Below, in pieces: positions 1,003 through 12,662 of a stretch of DNA of 19,177 nucleotides. This DNA is from a virus (taxonomy: Duplodnaviria > Heunggongvirae > Uroviricota > Caudoviricetes), in the IMG/VR virus record IMGVR_UViG_638341196_000003. One strand, given 5' to 3'. The notes beneath the pieces are model-generated. The model searched no databases. It was given only the letters and a program-made list of their open reading frames with translations, and was not told the origin of the DNA. The translations under genes and the position numbers were made by a program. How positions within the stretch are numbered: the stretch's first letter is position 1; each line of letters opens with the position of its first letter.

Positions 1003-1042
1003 GTTGTATTAGCTTACATATCTATGGCACAGAGTAAAGCCT

Positions 1043-1087
1043 AATCTGATAGTCCGCTCTGTGCCAGGAGCAGACATTGCCAACGTT
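1043..1087. repeat. Copy 1 of a ~30-38 bp repeat family (core TGTGCCAGGAGC-R-GAC-R-TTGCCA), about 40 bp after the G stop
   Basis: Hand alignment: 1052-1087 matches 5062-5097 at about 30 of 38 positions (direct); 1043-1080 matches the reverse complement of 10722-10759 at 31 of 38. Confidence 0.5.
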
Positions 1088-1470
1088 ATGACCCTCGATT
1101 ACATCAAAGAGCCCTATAGCCGAAACCTGCACCATAGCCATCTCTGTAGAATTCGTCCTAGGGGCTTTTAACAGACCTAGTTGTATGGATCGGAAGGAAA
1201 TATTAAAGCTCAAGGCGTCAGTCCAGTGCTGTCCTGTTTGCTTACCACACGAAAGAGTGCTGCTTGTACCTGCTAACTAATGGTATGCGGAGTGAGGGGG
1301 GCGGGTAGAACCAAAAGCACTTACTACGTGTGGCGCTCTCCTGGAAGAGGAGACGTCGAAGTGATAACGCTAACAACAGTCTTACTGGTGATGCAAATAA
1401 TGCTAGCTGGTCTGGTTGCCATCAAGCAACTGACCGGACGCCCGTAAGGGATGGAGGAACTTGATTAAAG

Positions 1471-1492
1471 GCAGGGGGGTTACCTCCCCTGC
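1471..1492 (+). terminator. Stem-loop of an intrinsic terminator split by IS2; its U-tract continues at 2829-2840
   Basis: GCAGGGG(G)...CCCCTGC stem ends exactly at the IS2 left junction. Removing IS2 and one copy of the CCTGC duplication gives GCAGGGGGGTTACCTCCCCTGC followed by CTTTTTTCGTTT. Confidence 0.5.
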
Positions 1493-1583
1493 TAGACTGG
1501 CCCCCTGAATCTCCAGACAACCAGTATCACTTAAATAAGTGATAGTCTTAATACTAGTTTTTAGACTAGTCATTGGAGTACAG

Positions 1584-1949
1584 ATGATTGATGTCTTAGG
1601 GCCGGAGAAACGCAGACGGCGTACCACACAGGAAAAGATCGCAATTGTTCAGCAGAGCTTTGAACCGGGGATGACGGTCTCCCTCGTTGCCCGGCAACAT
1701 GGTGTAGCAGCCAGCCAGTTATTTCTCTGGCGTAAGCAATACCAGGAAGGAAGTCTTACTGCTGTGGCCGCCGGAGAACAGGTTGTTCCTGCCTCTGAAC
1801 TTGCTGCCGCCATGAAGCAGATTAAAGAACTCCAGCGCCTGCTCGGCAAGAAAACGATGGAAAATGAACTCCTCAAAGAAGCCGTTGAATATGGACGGGC
1901 AAAAAAGTGGATAGCGCACGCGCCCTTATTGCCCGGGGATGGGGAGTAA
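1584..1949 (+). CDS. insC: IS2 transposase OrfA (InsC)
   Basis: 121-aa product [26 protein letters not shown]... with helix-turn-helix; ATG is the 16th codon of the listed ORF 1539-1949. Confidence 0.9.
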
Positions 1950-2812
1950 GCTTAGTCAGCCGTTGTCTCCGGGTGTCGCGTGCGCAGTTGCACGTCATTC
2001 TCAGACGAACCGATGACTGGATGGATGGCCGCCGCAGTCGTCACACTGATGATACGGATGTGCTTCTCCGTATACACCATGTTATCGGAGAGCTGCCCAC
2101 GTATGGTTATCGTCGGGTATGGGCGCTGCTTCGCAGACAGGCAGAACTTGATGGTATGCCTGCGATCAATGCCAAACGTGTTTACCGGATCATGCGCCAG
2201 AATGCGCTGTTGCTTGAGCGAAAACCTGCTGTACCGCCATCGAAACGGGCACATACAGGCAGAGTGGCCGTGAAAGAAAGCAATCAGCGATGGTGCTCTG
2301 ACGGGTTCGAGTTCTGCTGTGATAACGGAGAGAGACTGCGTGTCACGTTCGCGCTGGACTGCTGTGATCGTGAGGCACTGCACTGGGCGGTGACTACCGG
2401 CGGCTTCAACAGTGAAACAGTACAGGACGTCATGCTGGGAGCGGTGGAACGCCGCTTCGGCAACGATCTTCCGTCGTCTCCAGTGGAGTGGCTGACGGAT
2501 AATGGTTCATGCTACCGGGCTAATGAAACACGCCAGTTCGCCCGGATGTTGGGACTTGAACCGAAGAACACGGCGGTGCGGAGTCCGGAGAGTAACGGAA
2601 TAGCAGAGAGCTTCGTGAAAACGATAAAGCGTGACTACATCAGTATCATGCCCAAACCAGACGGGTTAACGGCAGCAAAGAACCTTGCAGAGGCGTTCGA
2701 GCATTATAACGAATGGCATCCGCATAGTGCGCTGGGTTATCGCTCGCCACGGGAATATCTGCGGCAGCGGGCTTGTAATGGGTTAAGTGATAACAGATGT
2801 CTGGAAATATAG
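1907..2812 (+). CDS. insD: IS2 transposase OrfB (InsD), DDE catalytic domain; normally made as an OrfAB fusion by -1 frameshifting
   Basis: 301-aa ORF overlapping orfA; A6G slippery run (GCAAAAAAGTGG) near 1896-1905; C-terminal [12 protein letters not shown] motif typical of the IS3 family. Confidence 0.9.
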
Positions 2813-2856
2813 GGGCAAATCCACCTGCCTTTTTTCGTTTCTGCGCAAGTTAGCTC

Positions 2857-2868
2857 TGTTATTATAAT
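2857..2868 (+). promoter_or_regulatory. Putative sigma70 -10 region (TGTTATTATAAT, extended -10 like) for the downstream 227-aa ORF
   Basis: TG-n-TATTAT / TATAAT hexamers 30-40 bp upstream of the ATG at 2899, immediately right of the IS2 end; no clear -35. Confidence 0.3.
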
Positions 2869-2898
2869 CCTTACTCACACTGTAAGGACATAGTTCAA

Positions 2899-3582
2899 AT
2901 GACTGAATGGCTTAATGCACATTTTGGTGCAGACGCAGCTACCTATCTTAGCTTATTAGTCGGCGTACTGGCACTGTTTGGTATTGGGGGCGGTGTTACA
3001 TATAGAATCAGACAGCAAAACAACATAAAACAGAAGGCAAAGAAAACCGAGGGTGATGTGAACCAGGCCGGGCGGGATATTAATCAGACCACCAACGTTT
3101 ACCACACATCCAATGAATCTACTGAGGACCCTGTAAAAAAAAAGCAAGATGAACATGATCTGAAGATAATCGACCAGATCCTTGAATTGCTGCCTTATGA
3201 GGATACTACTCAATGGGTTGAGCAGAGCTACCTGAGCGGTATACGGCAAGATGTTTGCTTAAACATTGAAAAAGCTGAAAAATTTAGCGGTGAAAAGTAT
3301 CGGTTATTCAATACTGAAGTGAATGGTGCGAAAGACGCTTTTTTGGACGCTATGACCGCATACGTAGATAGTACGCTACCATTTATGAGTGTTGATTACC
3401 CGAACAGAAAGCCAGTGATGCTAAGCCTTCCCCATGACTGGAAGAGTAAGAGTGTTGAATCGGAGGCAAACTTCCGCTTTCATCAGCAAAATGTGCGTGA
3501 AACATCGGGGGGGATGATTGCGCGCTATGAGGATTTTGTCAGGACATTTAAGGCTCATGGATTCATAAGCGATAAACTGTAA
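2899..3582 (+). CDS. Hypothetical membrane-anchored protein (227 aa): one N-terminal transmembrane helix, charged linker, soluble C-terminal domain; non-phage cargo
   Basis: Intact ORF with ATG start; hydrophobic segment YLSLLVGVLALFGIGGGV at residues ~16-33, then a Lys/Glu-rich linker. Own promoter-like region upstream and an intrinsic terminator downstream (rebuilt across the IS10-like insertion). No family recognised. Confidence 0.5.
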   Translation: MTEWLNAHFGADAATYLSLLVGVLALFGIGGGVTYRIRQQNNIKQKAKKTEGDVNQAGRDINQTTNVYHTSNESTEDPVKKKQDEHDLKIIDQILELLPYEDTTQWVEQSYLSGIRQDVCLNIEKAEKFSGEKYRLFNTEVNGAKDAFLDAMTAYVDSTLPFMSVDYPNRKPVMLSLPHDWKSKSVESEANFRFHQQNVRETSGGMIARYEDFVRTFKAHGFISDKL

Positions 3583-3675
3583 AGGCGCAGTGGGTCAGCG
3601 AACACCGCAACGACAGAACCGCGTAAGCGGTAAAATCAGCTTGTTAACTGGCGAGTTTATAGCCGTCCCTCCGGG

Positions 3676-4976
3676 CTGAGGGATCCCCACAAAATTACTG
3701 CTAATAAACCAGCACCATATTTCGGTAGGTTCTGGACAGATGGTTTAGAACTGTGCTCAGTACTGTTCGTCTTAAAATAAGTGGCGAGTGTCGAAGAACA
3801 TTCTTCGCTAACGTCAGATATGAGATAACCCGCCGGGATTTAATGCTGTTAGCCTGATATTTCAGGTGTAACCCTTTATTTTCAGCGTGATAACCGAGTA
3901 ACCACATTACGATAGTGCTCAACGTTGCCAGCAGACTCAGAACCAGAATTCTTCCTGTTGAACGACTTTTGCTGGCCCGAAGACCAAATCCGAAGCGCCC
4001 GTTCTTTTCATCACGAAAGTTTTGCTCTATCTGCATTCGCCGACTGTATAACTTGATGATTTCTCGCGCTCTGAAGTCATTTGTACTGCTGAAGATCAAC
4101 CAGGCTTCTTTTGCTGATTTGCTCTGTTCTTTGTCTGTTTTGTTTAAACCACTCTGACCTTTCGAACGTTTCTTTTTTCGCCCTTTTGCCGATTTCTTAT
4201 AGGTGTAAAAATGCCCCCGGATGCTTTTTTTCCTTTCTTTAACCAGCCTTCCAGCCTCCATATATTCCGGTGTTTTACATTCAGGGCTATCCGACACTTT
4301 TAACCATCTTTCAGGCGCGTTATCGAGGCAATACTGAACGTTATTTCTGATCCGACCAATAAAATCCCAGCCCAGAGAAGTAATATGGTGAAACCATGCG
4401 CTCTGAAATCCAGCATCCGTGACAATAATAACCCTGGCATCGGGGGGCAGGGATTGAGCAAGGGAATCAAGGAAATCATGTTGTATCAATGGATTATTTT
4501 GTTTTTCAGAAGGAACAACCTTACTCAATAACGGAATGGAACGCCCGTCACACAGAAGGCTGGCACGAAGAACATGATGCTCCTGGGAGGGATAGCCACT
4601 CCAGTCTACGGCTATTACACATAAAGATAACTGCCGTGTCAGCATTGAAGTGATATTCCTGAAAATCATTGGAATATCGCGATGGAGCGCCTCATTACCC
4701 ATGAGGCGATCAATACGTTTGCTCTTATTCTTAACTTGTGCATTACCCGGGAAAAAACGTCCGATACTGGTCAGCGTCAGAGATGCTCCGTTGATTAACG
4801 CCACTGTGGCATCCATCAGGGCATTTTGTCGGTACTGATGAAATGGTGCTAAGGCATCCCGGAAGAAATTCTGACATACTTTATGAACAGGCATAGCAGT
4901 GATCTCATTGAATTGTTGGCACAAATCAGTAGATCACATAATGCTATGTCTGTCTCGTTTTCTGGGAATTCCTCAG
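3676..4976 (-). mobile_element. IS4-family, IS10-like insertion sequence (1301 bp)
   Basis: Imperfect terminal inverted repeats CTGAGGGATCCCCACAAAATT (left) and CTGAGGAATTCCCAGAAAACG (right, reverse complement), 17 of 23 matching, resembling the IS10 end CTGATGAATCCCC. Perfect 9-bp duplication CCCTCCGGG at 3667-3675 and 4977-4985. Confidence 0.7.
3701..4924 (-). CDS. IS4-family (IS10 group-like) DDE transposase, 407 aa
   Basis: Shares landmarks with IS10 transposase as recalled (KRIDRLxGN, VDWS, RAS...GRS, DAGF, IYSxRMQIEQxFRD); stop 25 bp from the left inverted repeat. Confidence 0.85.
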   Translation of the reverse strand: MCQQFNEITAMPVHKVCQNFFRDALAPFHQYRQNALMDATVALINGASLTLTSIGRFFPGNAQVKNKSKRIDRLMGNEALHRDIPMIFRNITSMLTRQLSLCVIAVDWSGYPSQEHHVLRASLLCDGRSIPLLSKVVPSEKQNNPLIQHDFLDSLAQSLPPDARVIIVTDAGFQSAWFHHITSLGWDFIGRIRNNVQYCLDNAPERWLKVSDSPECKTPEYMEAGRLVKERKKSIRGHFYTYKKSAKGRKKKRSKGQSGLNKTDKEQSKSAKEAWLIFSSTNDFRAREIIKLYSRRMQIEQNFRDEKNGRFGFGLRASKSRSTGRILVLSLLATLSTIVMWLLGYHAENKGLHLKYQANSIKSRRVISYLTLAKNVLRHSPLILRRTVLSTVLNHLSRTYRNMVLVY

Positions 4977-5061
4977 CCCTCCGGGGCGGCTTTTTTATGA
5001 CTATAATCGACAGAATCACCTGAACGTCCAGGTGGGTTTCCCTGACAGGACGTCAAGGAAT

Positions 5062-5097
5062 GTTCGCTTTGTGCCAGGAGCGGACGTTGCCAGCATT
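5062..5097. repeat. Copy 2 of the repeat family, direct relative to copy 1, about 150 bp upstream of the 261-aa ORF
   Basis: Hand alignment to 1052-1087, about 30 of 38 identical, including an uninterrupted TGTGCCAGGAGC. Confidence 0.5.
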
Positions 5098-5246
5098 GAG
5101 TTTTCAGTTTTCAAAGGTATATCTTTAGATTTAGTTCACTTAGAATGAGCGTGTTAAAGTTTTCGGTTATGTGAGTATATTGAACATAACAAATAAACAA
5201 TAATTTTTGTATTCCATTTAGGATATAAAAAAGAGGGATTTGAGTT

Positions 5247-6032
5247 ATGTACGATTATAGTTTTTTACTTACTCCATCTACAGGATTTGTTAAAGGATTA
5301 TGTGGAGTTTGGTCGAATGATTTCTCTATAAATGATGATTCTGACTCTGATTTAGGGCAAACAGATATTCATTTACTTTCATCTCCTCATTTGAATATCA
5401 TATCCGACCCAAATGAATTGGCTTCCAAGTTAAAAGGTTTGTTGATGCTCATGAACGGCGCACTTAGCGTTCTTTATGGTTTTGAAAGATATCAATCTTT
5501 TGGTCCTCTTTCTATTTCTGGAAGTGAAGGCATTAATTACTCGGAAATATGCGGCTTTAAATCAATGGATGTAACTCAGGTAAACCCCTTTAATTTCCAT
5601 GACATACAGCAACCACACCCTCGCGCTGATAATTTTTCACGATTAATTAATTTATCATCTAAACATGAATCCTTACGTGTTGTTTTAGGTATGTGTGCCT
5701 TAGGTTATGATTGGGTTAATCTTTATCGTTTGTGGGAAACAATTAGAGAATATGTATATGATAAATATGTGAAAGGTATACTAAATTTCCCCGACGCTTA
5801 TAAAGGCAAGAAATATCAGAGAGATAAAGTAATTAGCATGGCTTTTAATATTGATGAAAAGGAAATCAGCAGATTCACGGGCACTGCTAATAGCTTTGAA
5901 CTGTTAGGGTATCTTGCGAGACATGGAAAGGGAAGTTCCGGAGGGATATTAAAAAATCCGATGTCAAGAGTTGACGCAAGCATTTTCGTACACAAAGCAA
6001 CTTACAAATATTGTAAGTTATTTTTGATGTAA
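5247..6032 (+). CDS. Hypothetical protein (261 aa), AT-rich non-phage cargo gene
   Basis: Intact ORF with ATG and an upstream AGAGGGA ribosome-binding site; the gene and its upstream region are visibly AT-rich compared with the flanking tail genes. No transmembrane segment or recognisable motif. Confidence 0.5.
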   Translation: MYDYSFLLTPSTGFVKGLCGVWSNDFSINDDSDSDLGQTDIHLLSSPHLNIISDPNELASKLKGLLMLMNGALSVLYGFERYQSFGPLSISGSEGINYSEICGFKSMDVTQVNPFNFHDIQQPHPRADNFSRLINLSSKHESLRVVLGMCALGYDWVNLYRLWETIREYVYDKYVKGILNFPDAYKGKKYQRDKVISMAFNIDEKEISRFTGTANSFELLGYLARHGKGSSGGILKNPMSRVDASIFVHKATYKYCKLFLM

Positions 6033-6124
6033 GTAAAAAGTTGAAGCTATAATACTCAAAGTATCGAAAACTACGTTCGTCGTGCACTCGAAAACAATAT
6101 GCTTATTGTGTCTGCACTAATTAC

Positions 6125-6161
6125 TCAAGGTCCGAGAAAAATGGCGAAGCTCATCTTTTTC
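6125..6161 (-). terminator. Intrinsic terminator serving the minus-strand HNH-like gene (hairpin GGCGAAGC/GCTTCGCC followed on the minus strand by AUUUUUCUC)
   Basis: Perfect 8-bp inverted repeat at 6133-6140 and 6154-6161, about 33 nt past the stop at 6194-6196; lies between two convergent cargo genes. Confidence 0.45.
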
Positions 6162-6193
6162 AGGCTTCGCCAACTTGAGTTATTGGTTAAAAT

Positions 6194-6372
6194 TCATTTA
6201 GGAATAATAGAATGCAATTCGTGACTCACCTGGATTTCATAGTGTTTCAATAGTTCTCCGATGTTAATTCCTACTACCTTACGAACTGCGCCGAGGGAGA
6301 AGTTAAGCTCCTCAATGCCCGGCCGATCTGGCGTTGAATTCATATAGTGTCGGCACGCACGGACAATTGACT
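6194..6372 (-). pseudogene. 3' segment (last 58 codons plus stop) of the HNH-like cargo gene interrupted by the IS911-like element
   Basis: Minus-strand frame at 6370 continues in phase the frame ending at 8845 once the IS and one copy of the ACT duplication are removed. The N-terminal residues of listed ORF 6194-6451 lie inside the IS end and are an artefact. Confidence 0.6.
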
Positions 6373-6380
6373 TGAAGTGG

Positions 6381-8509
<2,129 letters not shown>

Positions 8510-8510
8510 G

Positions 8511-8772
8511 TAGCCTTTTTTAATATTTCATTCTCCATTTCAATGCGTTGTAGCTTTTTCCTCAGCTTACGTATTTCGATTTGTTCTGGTGTTATCGGAG
8601 AGGCTTTTGGTGTTTTGCCCTGACGCTCATCACGCAGTTGTTTGACCCATCTTGTCATTGTGGAAAGGCCAACATCCATAGCTTTGGCGGCATCTGCCAC
8701 CGTGTATTTCTGGTCAACAACCAGTTGAGCGGATTCGCGTTTAAACTCTGCGCTAAAATTTCTTTTTTTCAT
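8511..8772 (-). pseudogene. IS911-like orfA, 5' portion (codons 1-88) cut by IS30; the last 12 codons and stop resume at 7288-7247
   Basis: [56 protein letters not shown]...EILKKAT, then IS30; downstream of IS30 the frame reads [12 protein letters not shown]-stop. Confidence 0.8.
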
Positions 8773-8844
8773 TGGAGCACCTGTGTTGTTCTGAGGCGAG
8801 CATATCACCTCTGTTCAGGTGGCCAAATTCAGTGTGCCACTTCA

Positions 8845-9421
8845 ACTCGACGATCAACGATAGCGGAGACTCAGGTGCAATCTCGGAGCGAATCGCCGTA
8901 AGAGAGAGTCGGAGCTCCTTCAAAGAATCCGAGACTCGTGCTGGATCCTCTTGAGCATATGGCAGATAAAGAGAACTCTTGTCTTCCAATAAATGGATCA
9001 ACCGCAGAGCAATTTTCTCGTCTGGGCGATGCGATAGAAATTGAAACATTAGCCTCTTTCCTCCCTCCAAGCACTCCTTCATTAGTGATTCGTGGTTACG
9101 TTTCCATTTTCGCAAATACTCGGCGGGGTAGCCCATACCGCCATTCTTATCAACTAAATCAGCACAAGCTCCGCACAACCATATAGCATTTTTTATGCTC
9201 TTCCGCTCTGTTTCTGACTGAGACATGTCATAGCGCGGTCCGCCAGGGCTCGCCGCGCAGATATGCGCCGCCTCACCCGTCTTGATAGAAAGATTTTCCG
9301 CCAATTGATCCGGGCCGATTGTTACCCTATGACAAGAGGGATTGCTACAAATATATGTAGCGCGCTCTGCTACCTTACCTACAACGCTTGGAGGAAAGTT
9401 GTGCCTATTTGTCTTGGTCAT
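8845..9421 (-). pseudogene. 5' segment (codons 1-192) of the HNH-like cargo gene interrupted by the IS911-like element
   Basis: ATG at 9421; product carries CSNPSCH...GEAAHICAASPGG...NAIWLCGACADLVD, an HNH-type Cys/His/Asn signature with non-canonical substitutions. The tail of listed ORF 8753-9421 beyond 8845 is read-through into the IS. Confidence 0.6.
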
Positions 9422-9492
9422 AAAAGTTATGCTTCTTTGTTTTTTTCATCTATGTGGGGAGAATAAAATCATACTTTTTATATCTGATCCTA

Positions 9493-10645
9493 AATAGCTG
9501 CGCTTAATACCGCTACACTTTTGCCAGTCCATGTTTGCCTCCGGGGAATGGGCTGACGGTTTCCATAAAATGGCGAACTTTTTTCAACAGTTGCCACATT
9601 GAGCGGCACTGATGATTACGCGTTATTGTGTCGTGAAGTGCCTGCCATAGCCGTTCAACATGATTCACCCATGGCGAGTAAACCGGCTGATAAATGACCC
9701 TGAACTTCGGGTTCTCCTTCAGCCAGCTCTGTGTTTCCCGGCTTTTGTGGATAATGTAGTTGTCCACGATCAGCGTGATGGTTTTCGCCCGACGGTATGT
9801 CGCTTTAAGCCGCTTCAGCAGGCTGATGAACAGCGCCGAACTTTTGCTGTTGCCGCCCACATAGCTGACTTTACCTGTCCCGCTGTGCAGCGCTCCGGCC
9901 AGATAATATTTTTCATTCTGTCCCGGCGTGACCACCCGTTTTTGCTGTCCGCGCAGTTGCCAGTCCGCACCGATTTTGGGATGAAGATGGATATCCACTT
10001 CATCTTCATAAAAGACCGGATGCTCTGCGCTGCATTCGTCCAGTGCTTTATGGATTGCTGCCATCTTTTCATCTTTATGCGGGTCACGGATACGCAGAGT
10101 TGGCGCAGCCCTTCGCCACACAATCCCCGCAGACGGCAACCAGCGGCGAACGGTTCCGGCATTTAACTGGCAACCGGTTATCTCATTGATTTTTATTGCC
10201 AGCAGTTCTGTACTCCAGCGTGAACGCTGGTAGACAAAGTCGCCGGGAGAATGTTTTACCAGCTCACGTAACAGTGTGCAGATATGCTCAAACGGCCAGC
10301 GACGGGCACGCCCGGCAGGTAATGATTTCAGTCCCTCAACACCCGACTGCGTGAACCAGTTAATCCAGCGTCCAACAGAGGAACGGGCGCAGCAGAGCGT
10401 TCTGGCAACGTCGCTGACACGGTCGCCCCGGTGCAGCATCAGCATGGCAGTCAGTCTGCGGGCATAATTTTTATCGTGTGTTTTATGGATGGCTTTCTGC
10501 ATCAGGCGTCGTTCGTCACGGGAAATTGGTGCTATGATCGGCATTGCTCAGTCCGGTTGGTGATTTGTTTTGATTTGGCGATTGATCAGATCGCACAATC
10601 CGGGCTAAGTTCCCTCAAAATGATCTACTATTCCGCGCAGCTATT
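9493..10645 (-). mobile_element. IS630 insertion sequence, complete (1153 bp)
   Basis: 343-aa transposase; imperfect terminal inverted repeats (AATAGCTGCGC...); flanking TA duplication at 9491-9492 and 10646-10647; reconstructed target GATCCTAGGTCTG contains CTAG. Confidence 0.9.
9513..10544 (-). CDS. IS630 (Tc1/mariner superfamily) transposase
   Basis: 343-aa product MPIIAPISRDERRLMQKAIHKTHDKNYARRL... matches IS630 transposase from recall. Confidence 0.9.
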   Translation of the reverse strand: MPIIAPISRDERRLMQKAIHKTHDKNYARRLTAMLMLHRGDRVSDVARTLCCARSSVGRWINWFTQSGVEGLKSLPAGRARRWPFEHICTLLRELVKHSPGDFVYQRSRWSTELLAIKINEITGCQLNAGTVRRWLPSAGIVWRRAAPTLRIRDPHKDEKMAAIHKALDECSAEHPVFYEDEVDIHLHPKIGADWQLRGQQKRVVTPGQNEKYYLAGALHSGTGKVSYVGGNSKSSALFISLLKRLKATYRRAKTITLIVDNYIIHKSRETQSWLKENPKFRVIYQPVYSPWVNHVERLWQALHDTITRNHQCRSMWQLLKKVRHFMETVSPFPGGKHGLAKV

Positions 10646-10721
10646 TAGGTCTGACCAGCAACCTATTGATCAAAAAACCAAGATATTAGCTAAAAAAAAT
10701 CAGCATACTTGAGACCAAGCT

Positions 10722-10759
10722 CAATGTCCGCTCCTCGCTCAAAGCAGACTGTCAGATTT
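10722..10759. repeat. Copy 3 of the repeat family, inverted relative to copy 1, about 180 bp upstream of FI
   Basis: 10722-10759 matches the reverse complement of 1043-1080 at 31 of 38 positions by hand alignment. Confidence 0.5.
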
Positions 10760-10941: not shown

Positions 10942-12132
10942 ATGAGTGACTATCATCACGGCGTGCAGGTGCTGGAGATTAACGACGGCACCCGCGTCAT
11001 TTCCACCGTATCCACGGCCATTGTCGGCATGGTCTGCACGGCCAGCGATGCAGATGCGGAAACCTTCCCCCTCAATAAACCGGTGCTGATTACCAATGTG
11101 CAGAGCGCAATTGCAAAGGCCGGTAAAAAAGGCACGCTGGCGGCGTCGTTACAGGCCATCGCTGACCAGTCAAAACCGGTCACCGTTGTTGTGCGCGTGG
11201 AAGACGGCACCGGCGACGACGAAGAAACGAAGCTCGCGCAGACCGTTTCCAATATCATCGGCACCACCGACGAAAACGGTCAGTACACCGGACTGAAAGC
11301 CCTGCTGGCGGCGGAGTCGGTAACCGGTGTTAAACCGCGCATTCTCGGTGTGCCGGGACTGGATACCAAAGAGGTGGCTGTTGCACTGGCATCAGTCTGT
11401 CAGAAGCTGCGCGCTTTCGGGTATATCAGCGCATGGGGCTGTAAAACCATTTCCGAGGTGAAAGCCTACCGCCAGAATTTCAGCCAGCGTGAGCTGATGG
11501 TCATCTGGCCGGATTTCCTCGCATGGGATACGGTCACCAGTACCACCTCCACCGCGTATGCCACCGCCCGTGCGCTGGGGCTGCGCGCTAAAATCGACCA
11601 GGAGCAGGGCTGGCATAAAACGCTGTCCAACGTCGGGGTGAACGGTGTTACCGGCATCAGCGCGTCCGTATTCTGGGATTTGCAGGAGTCCGGCACCGAT
11701 GCTGACCTGCTTAACGAGTCAGGCGTCACAACGCTGATTCGCCGTGACGGTTTCCGCTTCTGGGGTAACCGTACCTGCTCTGATGACCCGCTGTTCCTCT
11801 TTGAAAACTACACCCGCACCGCGCAGGTGCTGGCCGACACGATGGCTGAGGCGCACATGTGGGCGGTGGACAAGCCCATCACCGCAACGCTGATTCGCGA
11901 CATCGTTGACGGCATCAATGCCAAATTCCGTGAGCTGAAAACAAACGGCTATATCGTGGATGCGACCTGCTGGTTCAGCGAAGAATCCAACGATGCGGAA
12001 ACCCTCAAGGCCGGAAAACTGTATATCGACTACGACTATACACCGGTGCCTCCTCTCGAAAACCTGACCCTGCGCCAGCGTATTACCGATAAATACCAGG
12101 CAAATCTGGTCACCTCGGTTAACAGCAATTAA
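10942..12132 (+). CDS. FI: Contractile tail sheath protein (P2 gpFI-like)
   Basis: 396-aa ORF, same length as P2 FI; position and order match the P2 FI-FII-E-T-U-D cluster. Confidence 0.9.
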   Translation: MSDYHHGVQVLEINDGTRVISTVSTAIVGMVCTASDADAETFPLNKPVLITNVQSAIAKAGKKGTLAASLQAIADQSKPVTVVVRVEDGTGDDEETKLAQTVSNIIGTTDENGQYTGLKALLAAESVTGVKPRILGVPGLDTKEVAVALASVCQKLRAFGYISAWGCKTISEVKAYRQNFSQRELMVIWPDFLAWDTVTSTTSTAYATARALGLRAKIDQEQGWHKTLSNVGVNGVTGISASVFWDLQESGTDADLLNESGVTTLIRRDGFRFWGNRTCSDDPLFLFENYTRTAQVLADTMAEAHMWAVDKPITATLIRDIVDGINAKFRELKTNGYIVDATCWFSEESNDAETLKAGKLYIDYDYTPVPPLENLTLRQRITDKYQANLVTSVNSN

Positions 12133-12144
12133 GGAGCCTGACCG

Positions 12145-12662
12145 ATGGCAATGCCGCGCAAACTCAAGTTAATGAACGTCTTTCTGAACGGCTACAGCTA
12201 TCAGGGCGTTGCAAAGTCCGTCACGCTGCCAAAACTGACCCGTAAACTCGAAAACTATCGCGGTGCGGGGATGAACGGAAGCGCACCGGTAGACCTCGGC
12301 CTTGATGACGATGCGCTGTCAATGGAGTGGTCGCTCGGGGCTTCCCGGATTCGGTTATCTGGGAGCTCTACGCCGCAACCGGCGTGGATGCCGTACCGAT
12401 TCGTTTTGCTGGCTCTTACCAGCGCGACGATACCGGCGAAACGGTGGCCGTCGAGGTGGTCATGCGTGGCCGTCAGAAAGAAATCGACACCGGCGAGGGG
12501 AAACAGGGAGAAGACACCGAGTCGAAAATCTCCGTGGTCTGCACCTATTTCCGGCTGACGATGGACGGTAAGGAGCTGGTCGAAATCGACACCATCAACA
12601 TGATTGAGAAGGTGAACGGTGTCGACCGGCTGGAGCAACACCGCCGCAATATCGGCCTGTGA
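12145..12662 (+). pseudogene. FII: Tail tube protein (P2 gpFII-like), frame disrupted near 12337-12340
   Basis: N-terminal 62 codons in frame 1 (…LSMEWSLG), remainder in the overlapping frame (GFPDSVIWELYAAT…) of listed ORFs 12145-12558 and 12327-12662. The break sits in a G4 run where one more G would restore a ~172-aa protein. Confidence 0.6.

Follow-up and report, generated by a model that had tools for sequence, protein, structure and literature searches.

An intact two-module membrane protein gene in the G/FI cargo of a P2-like prophage belongs to a mobile family and is a candidate abortive infection gene

The gene and its setting in the prophage cargo

The stretch of DNA analysed here (the window; 19,177 nucleotides, IMG/VR virus record IMGVR_UViG_638341196_000003) is the late region of a P2-like (Peduovirus) prophage, and between its P2 G and FI genes lies an intact open reading frame (ORF; 2899-3582, plus strand, ATG start) for a 227 amino acid, two-module, predicted inner-membrane protein. 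We give about an even chance to this being a single-gene anti-phage protein of the abortive infection (Abi) type, combining a cytoplasmic sensor with a membrane effector. Phage P2 itself carries an accessory gene between G and FI, Z/fun, which excludes T5. In the window, the C-terminus of tail-fibre gene H (1-471) and P2 G (475-1002; Caudo_TAP at 1.5e-33, and 93-97% identical to G of Peduovirus records) are followed by cargo at this Z/fun position, spanning 1029-10749, and then by the sheath gene FI (10942-12132), FII, E, T, U, D, ogr and a host U32-peptidase gene. The cargo is one 3445 bp three-gene cassette, 99.6-99.9% identical by BLAST to an uninterrupted Escherichia coli copy (L001), which has been cut up here by five insertion sequence (IS) copies and of which the gene under study is the first module. 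Four other P2-like viral contigs (L021-L024) have the same cassette between G and FI, uninterrupted in the IMG/VR contig L021 and with intermediate IS loads in L023 and L024, so that the cassette is conserved at G-FI loci elsewhere; an earlier note on this DNA, made from the letters alone, had named a lack of such conservation, together with the lack of a phenotype, as grounds for giving up its proposal of a phage-excluding cargo gene. The Z/fun locus has been named as a P2 defence locus (PMC13586616), and it was the other P2 hotspot, old/tin, that was analysed by Rousset et al. (2022).

The gene and its start codon are real, because 14 homologues with 36-65% identity to the protein align with it from end to end, with 40 invariant columns and with M1, W4, N6, G10 and D12 of the start region conserved. 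Cluster P0001, whose 97 member sequences are without exception annotated as ‘hypothetical protein’, also matches the protein from end to end at 100% identity, and the ORF call, the cluster identity and the alignment together bear out the earlier description of an intact single gene for 227 amino acids. A partial identical protein (P0002) is named from Shigella dysenteriae, which together with the number of IS copies in the cargo points to a genome of Shigella type.

Upstream of the gene, the -10-like element which had been proposed is present as TATAAT at 2863-2868 (with TGtTATTAT at 2857-2865), but no acceptable -35 element accompanies it, and scanning the intact copy for sigma-70 promoters gave no call upstream of the gene; the evidence for a full promoter is therefore weak. 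The 5' untranslated region contains a 7 bp hairpin (2868-2888, UCCUUAC...GUAAGGA) whose 3' arm covers the Shine-Dalgarno sequence AAGGA (2884-2888), and the 58 nucleotide leader RNA folds at -13.2 kcal/mol (z -2.7). Intrinsic terminators bound the gene on both sides in the uninterrupted copies, as had been suggested for the window, where both are split. The upstream terminator of the intact copy, AAAGGCAGGGGGGTTACCTCCCCTGCCTTT followed by TTTCG (L001 7983-8012), is interrupted in the window by an IS2 copy which parts the hairpin from its T-tract (2829-2835). The downstream one is contiguous in the uninterrupted copies as AGCCGTCCCTCCGGGGCGGCT followed by TTTTTT (L001 8841-8861, -17.5 kcal/mol), and these match exactly the terminator that the earlier note had rebuilt across an IS10-like insertion; in the window its 5' half, AGCCGTCCCTCCGGG (3661-3675, plus strand), is separated from its 3' half (GCGGC and six T residues, to 4996), which lies with the right end of the module in the segment 4977-5085 (plus strand). 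A terminator scan of the intact copy gave 9 terminator-like sites where 3.2 were expected.

The remainder of the cassette begins with a non-coding leader (1029-1492, plus strand, 98.5% identical to L001 7545-8008), which holds only short ORFs, none of them convincing, and ends in the stem-loop of the upstream terminator (about 1467-1492); a search for regulatory RNA in and around the cassette found no Rfam match at E<=0.1. The IS2 copy (1493-2823, plus strand, ORFs 1539-1949 and 1907-2812), whose junctions were placed by comparison with the uninterrupted copy, is bounded by a 5 bp target duplication, CCTGC (1488-1492 and 2824-2828), and is followed by the native 5' region (2824-2898, plus strand) with the T-tract, the -10-like box and the hairpin over the Shine-Dalgarno sequence. 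Downstream of the gene, the IS10-like (IS4-family) element (3676-4976, minus strand, with a 407 amino acid DDE_Tnp_1 transposase at 3701-4924) has produced a 9 bp duplication, CCCTCCGGG (3667-3675 and 4977-4985). The 1.4 kb single-gene module ends at cassette nucleotide 1411, about position 5085 of the window, and beyond it lie the second cassette gene (5247-6032, plus strand, 261 amino acids, 35% G+C), which is intact and whose product has no match in any family library, and the third (6194-9421, minus strand), which encodes a 250 amino acid HNH-like protein (PDC-M68A-like in PADLOC at 6e-24; ‘DUF6650 family protein’ in RefSeq). An IS3-family element with an IS30 copy inside it (6373-8844) divides this HNH-like gene at 6372/8845, and no other of the three cassette genes is broken in the window; an IS630-type element (9493-10645) follows the gene. 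Five IS copies thus lie within 9.7 kb of prophage cargo (1493-10645), two of them inside intrinsic terminators. Most of the IS names are those which we presume to apply, and we take the IS2 copy to be such from its ends and its transposase. Further downstream, the tail-tube gene FII (12145-12662) looks frameshifted, consisting of a 137 amino acid ORF and an overlapping 111 amino acid ORF in another frame, and the prophage may therefore be defective; the 137 amino acid ORF is 100% identical in viral contig L024 and has a two-piece match in L021, where FII may be intact.

Distribution and mobility of the gene

Among 5426 complete E. coli genomes, 33 carry the gene, and only 15 of those 33 have the whole three-gene cassette. 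In about 18 of the carriers cassette nucleotides 1-1411 stand alone, with a constant right end about 94 bp past the terminator, and what follows this lone module differs, being either a 366 amino acid protein gene with an integrase fragment and a gene of the dynamin family, or else a 205 amino acid protein gene and a DUF2971 gene. Serratia proteamaculans and S. montpellierensis have only nucleotides 186-1411 in common with the cassette, at 97% DNA identity. Comparison of strains K99S and CFS3313 shows the 261 amino acid and DUF6650 genes to be a separate insertion-deletion block after the target module; the 261 amino acid gene always accompanies the HNH-like gene as this separate 2 kb block, and these two may therefore constitute a candidate two-gene system in their own right. 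Beyond the cassette of E. coli, no homologue of the target has either of them next to it.

This distribution largely refutes the idea, which we rate as very improbable, that the protein is a subunit of a three-gene system with the 261 amino acid and HNH-like (DUF6650/PDC-M68A-like) proteins. The trio does travel together at >99% identity in viral contigs as well as in 15 E. coli genomes, with the P2 hotspot and Ag43/GTPase islands as its two settings. However, a strong terminator and 355 bp lie between the target and the 261 amino acid gene, the target module occurs by itself in the lone-module E. coli genomes and in Serratia, the pair behaves as an indel block, no homologue elsewhere has these neighbours, and in the window the HNH-like gene is broken while the target is intact. 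No other conserved downstream partner was seen: the marine copies are followed by small, unrelated ORFs, and the 196-261 amino acid genes which follow the E. coli, Yersinia-plasmid, Salmonella-plasmid and E. coli SE11 copies have no detectable similarity.

The strongest evidence for a single-gene unit is the marine branch of the family. In the chromosomal integron of Vibrio alginolyticus (L003) the gene stands between two attC copies (7811-7948 and 8685-8822) which are 874 nucleotides apart, and the gene with its attC is 92.8% identical in Marinobacterium (L020), where it lies directly after a tyrosine-recombinase gene whose integrase subtype is not confirmed; in Pseudoalteromonas the identity is 82% and an attC-like remnant accompanies it. 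The Vibrio and Marinobacterium homologues fit the definition of an integron cassette, a single ORF with its own attC which lies within an attC array or next to an integron integrase. Elsewhere, homologues occur after the tail fibres of a lambdoid prophage, in the variable region of an integrative and conjugative element (ICE), on eight plasmids, of which six are conjugative, among the genes carried by a type I-F CRISPR (clustered regularly interspaced short palindromic repeats)-associated Tn7-like transposon and, for E. coli copies, in Ag43/YeeP-type islands. The target is thus an autonomous, independently mobile single-gene module with its own terminators. The earlier description of it as an independently expressed moron is right and agrees with those terminators and with the lone module found elsewhere, although in the window the gene does not stand alone, being the first of three in a cassette.

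DUF2971 proteins are encoded within about 1-3 kb of a homologue in the Vibrio integron (L003 6562-7290), in Serratia (L017 4793-5572) and in E. coli SE11 (L031 8246-8974). Genes of umuD/umuC type lie a few kb from homologues in a prophage, two plasmids and the CRISPR-associated transposon (L006/L007, L019, L050 and L015), a proximity which probably reflects shared cargo zones of mobile elements.

The two modules of the protein and their relatives

The single N-terminal transmembrane helix which had been proposed is borne out by a hydrophobic segment at residues 15-35 (Kyte-Doolittle mean 1.89). There are no Lys or Arg residues before this segment and 7 after it, and the protein is therefore predicted to be oriented N-out/C-in with its soluble domain in the cytoplasm. 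AlphaFold2 modelled residues 78-220 as an all-helical bundle of four or five helices with a predicted local distance difference test (pLDDT) score mostly >90, in agreement with the soluble domain of about 150 amino acids that had been expected, and gave low confidence to residues 1-74, with residues 27-77 unstructured at a pLDDT of about 30. The linker had been called Lys/Glu-rich, and its composition is actually Lys/Gln/Asn-rich.

An exhaustive profile search with the target family returned only 61 representatives and exposed two modules which also occur separately, an N-module (residues 1-63; 2899-3087, plus strand) and a C-domain (residues 84-227; 3148-3579, plus strand, with AlphaFold2 pLDDT above 90). 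The protein had no match below E=0.1 in Pfam, NCBIfam or PHROGs, and no PADLOC-DB v2 family matched it at E<=1; the family is absent from every library tested. In the literature we found no paper on WP_000141343 or LPO_1073, and Vpar_1526 only in a proteome list.

The C-domain, which has the conserved motifs D-L-K-I-I..I..LLPYEDT and P..L.LPHDWK, matched only generic helical bundles in structure searches. It occurs behind unrelated membrane anchors, it is fused to TIR_2 in P0057 (1.2e-7), the gene for which lies beside AbiEi/AbiEii on a conjugative element, and in at least 11 clusters it follows an HNH domain (PF01844). The target family aligns with these HNH clusters over residues about 84-221 (hhalign 94.6%, E 6.8e-8). 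To judge by these sequences, the swapping of the C-domain among a membrane segment, TIR and HNH is the pattern of a sensor or regulator with interchangeable killing modules. The HNH-like neighbour in the cassette was also considered as a protein sharing the C-domain, and this was rejected at hhalign probabilities of 0.1% and 0.4%.

Homology to a phage structural or lysis protein, which the earlier note had said would count against a cargo effector, was not apparent, as PHROGs was negative and nothing was found in BFVD below E=0.07. The nearest approach to it was a match of the family profile to the baseplate/tube-initiator protein gp11 of Vibrio phage XM1 (PDB 7kh1, E 8.6e-5), which extends over about 115 residues, pairing residues 66-180 with the insertion region of gp11, and includes the common pattern D[LF]..I..I..LLP...AE.AE..G..Y. 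We find it barely credible that the target is derived from gp11, since the hhalign probability is only 38% and fold searches were unsupportive; the C-domain model contains helices only, while a beta-sandwich is the fold described for gp11 (PMC10457771), and the target lies in cargo, outside the structural operon, and occurs in non-phage elements. A phage structural origin was rejected on this disagreement of folds and the low hhalign value.

The N-module comprises an acidic N-tail (MTEWLN.HFGADAATY), the transmembrane helix, a basic linker and the motif GDVNQAGRDIN. Its conservation goes well beyond the need of a plain anchor, A14, T15, Y16 and Q56 being invariant across 17 diverse sequences and Q56 aligning with the invariant Q in an IQ[VI]GGD motif of separate mini-proteins. 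These mini-proteins, of 60-70 amino acids, are stand-alone forms of the N-module (one in Salmonella is found on at least 1000 contigs), and their genes overlap the start of a downstream gene with a Vpar_1526/LPO_1073 domain; the mini and Vpar_1526 parts are fused in P0039, P0044 and P0063. The very common Salmonella pair (L043 7001-8000) adjoins TacA/TacT and is downstream of glyQS. Split forms occur within the target family as well: in Yersinia a 70 amino acid mini-protein gene is separated by a 17 nucleotide gap from a 148 amino acid C-domain ORF (45% identical), and on Salmonella IncFII plasmids ORFs of 92 and 140 amino acids overlap by 4 nucleotides.

The junction of the two modules coincides exactly with a run of nine A residues (A9; Lys-Lys-Lys; 3135-3143, plus strand), which is a frameshift hotspot. 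The observations on this tract are drawn from the window and from loci L002, L018, L024, L019, L025 and L046. The corresponding position is also A9 in lineages L019 and L025, whose proteins are only 55-64% identical, the Yersinia split form carries A8 at the junction, and split genes have arisen from A10 in L002, from A8 in L024 and, in L018, from the deletion of a G. Frameshift variants yield products consisting of the N-module only, such as P0027 (87 amino acids, 20 member sequences). The A9 variants may represent phase variation, transcriptional slippage or sequencing error.

About 50 residues into the N-module lies the motif [IVF]-Q-x-[GA]-[GR]-[DN], which reads IQVGGD or IQIGGN in mini-proteins and NQAGRD in the target and is repeated three times in tandem in P0008. 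Both products of each of three independent mini/Vpar_1526 pairs (L034, L038 and L043; minis of 64-70 amino acids) carry the form [VA]IQ[VIA][GA]G[DN], for example as ‘...GGIVIQVGGDF...’ followed in the downstream product by ‘MNQKAQANENSTVIQIAGNL...’. This layout is that of the amyloid-signalling pairs described for the Bab/Agp Abi system of E. coli and the Bell/NLR BASS pairs (bioRxiv 10.1101/2024.11.07.622273 and 10.1101/2020.01.06.895854), in which a short motif stands at the C-terminus of a small membrane protein and at the N-terminus of the adjacent product, and for which G-phi-Q-phi-G is the core named for RHIM/PP/BASS3. The N-module relatives are likewise small, with an N-terminal hydrophobic helix and a C-terminal Gly/Gln motif, the adjacent Vpar_1526 product opens with the same motif (VIQ[VI][GA]G[DN]), all-in-one fused forms exist as they do for NLRs, and many mini-proteins have the G-phi-Q-phi-G core (GIQVG, VIQVGG). 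The partners differ, being Vpar_1526 or a helical bundle rather than NLR or TPR-PIN proteins, and homology to Bell/Bab or Agp is not evident, no test aimed at it having been made. In the target itself the motif (V-N-Q-A-G-R-D) is degenerate with respect to G-phi-Q-phi-G, only Q56 and G58 matching, and the split Yersinia C-domain ORF is without the motif; the target is a fused, single-motif form to which the criterion of a motif pair is not directly applicable. By this analogy, amyloid-type signalling is a lead for the target. A broader proposal, which we consider doubtful, is that membrane death-switches of a class not yet described are widespread in Enterobacteria and Vibrios and that the target represents their fused, all-in-one version. 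In such a class the mini-protein, which has one transmembrane helix after its conserved tail and ends in an RHIM-like G-phi-Q-phi-G-G-D motif, would become active when this motif associates, in a templated and amyloid-like manner, with its counterpart on a cytoplasmic sensor (a Vpar_1526 domain or the helical bundle), and slippage at A9, by giving an effector-only product, could let the gene alternate between, or mix, forms under sensor control and forms with a free effector.

Candidate function and known systems

Several homologues have defence genes as neighbours. One is flanked by PifA upstream (2.5e-257) and AbiD downstream (3.9e-61), another adjoins RmrT and an HTH/M78 protein, and another PDC-S28 (E=0); the copy in the CRISPR-associated transposon has an AbiP/AbiC-like gene nearby, one integron has a homologue as its first cassette followed by a TIR cassette, and a type I restriction-modification system and DarTG lie beside another. 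This suggests an association with defence, which is not a statistic. We infer from sequence the defence function, the assignment of sensor and effector and membrane damage as the output, and it is guilt by association together with the domain-swap logic which points to an Abi or superinfection exclusion (Sie) role. In an Abi-type protein of this build, the cytoplasmic helical-bundle C-domain would be the sensor or regulatory module and the N-module, with its short periplasmic tail, one transmembrane helix and membrane-proximal Q-x-G-[GR]-D, would be the effector. Upon an infection cue, the C-domain would release the N-module or drive its self-association, and the N-module would then compromise the membrane, with the infected cell being stopped before phage release.

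Superinfection exclusion without abortion, in which injection or an early membrane step would be blocked in a Sie- or Imm-like manner and the cell would not be killed, seems to us distinctly unlikely. It would suit the prophage copies, which in two phage types that are unrelated to each other (P2-like and lambdoid) come immediately behind the tail-fibre genes, and also a protein which has one membrane anchor and whose short periplasmic N-tail is highly conserved. However, because the large domain is predicted to be cytoplasmic, an Abi-type intracellular sensor is favoured over a periplasmic blocker of injection. Likewise TIR and HNH, both cytoplasmic killing domains, are found elsewhere as fusion partners of this C-domain, an arrangement which fits a suicide effector better than a block to entry, and most carriers are not phages but integrons, plasmids, islands and the CRISPR-associated transposon.

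A role outside defence is also unlikely in our estimation. In that case the protein would be an accessory membrane protein of the mobile element (addiction or toxin-like, or acting in plasmid or ICE exclusion) or one serving host envelope physiology, and the neighbouring defence genes would mark general cargo zones. The recurrence of the gene near toxin-antitoxin, partition, resolvase and umuDC genes on plasmids and integrons agrees with this, as do the position of the related mini/Vpar_1526 pair next to TacA/TacT in Salmonella and the several contexts with no recognisable defence gene. Against it, fusions of a C-domain to TIR or HNH are typical of immune and conflict proteins, the TIR fusion lies beside AbiE, and the gene is placed exactly at hotspots of defence-gene exchange.

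A number of points nevertheless weigh against an Abi-type defence function. The protein has no homology to any validated defence protein (in PADLOC, Pfam, NCBIfam or PHROGs). No recognised defence neighbour accompanies the homologues in the Pseudoalteromonas islet, on the Citrobacter and Yersinia plasmids or in the ICE, and the association with defence genes was counted on about 14 contexts without a background model. The family is very rare, with 16 clusters among 5.8 billion. The generic helical-bundle fold, as modelled, is uninformative on ligand or trigger, the single transmembrane helix may be a mere anchor and not an effector, and the promoter, as read from the sequence, is weak on paper.

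Compact membrane-anchored defence cargo is a known kind, and it is the two-module architecture of the target which is unusual. With Z/fun the target shares the G/FI hotspot, the nature of non-essential cargo and a transcription unit of its own; it is also low in G+C (43% compared to 57% for FI), and a P2-type record also has a membrane protein at this hotspot. It differs in that the hotspot gene of the examined P2 record lies on the other strand and that the target family is not phage-specific. A tblastn search of 50,697 phage records found no protein similar to the target, and BLASTP against the 233 amino acid hotspot protein of NC_070905, which is not confirmed as Z/fun, gave E=18. The earlier comparison with Z/fun therefore holds for position, the hotspot being the same, but does not extend to sequence.

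Abi systems of one or two proteins with a membrane effector (RexAB, PifA, AbiZ-type proteins, TIR-TM and Sucellos) are similar to the target in being cargo of mobile elements or prophages with a membrane segment coupled to a cytoplasmic domain, but the target has no PADLOC match, one transmembrane helix and a plain helical bundle as its candidate sensor. LPO_1073/Vpar_1526 proteins (NF045477, PF28206) have the N-module in common with the target, either fused or as the overlapping upstream mini-gene, whereas the C-domain of the target is no Vpar_1526 domain, since among NCBIfam models the target matches none and only the proteins sharing its N-module match NF045477. Brigantia, from V. cholerae and one of the defence cassettes of sedentary chromosomal integrons, has been described as encoding a protein with only a transmembrane domain (bioRxiv 10.1101/2024.07.02.601686); by that description it is like the marine homologues, which are single-gene integron cassettes for a transmembrane segment and an unknown domain, but no V. 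cholerae name occurred among those read for the clusters of the family.

The swappable modules, occurring fused or as overlapping genes, provide a natural experiment by which sensor and effector could be told apart. If the Abi-type function is correct, the target would represent a new family of compact (0.7 kb) anti-phage genes which current defence-annotation libraries have missed and which moves among P2 hotspots, chromosomal islands, integrons, plasmids and CRISPR-associated transposons. If the amyloid-type lead is correct as well, this form of signalling, for which a single defence system of E. coli has been the only example to date, would reach the much commoner Salmonella pair.

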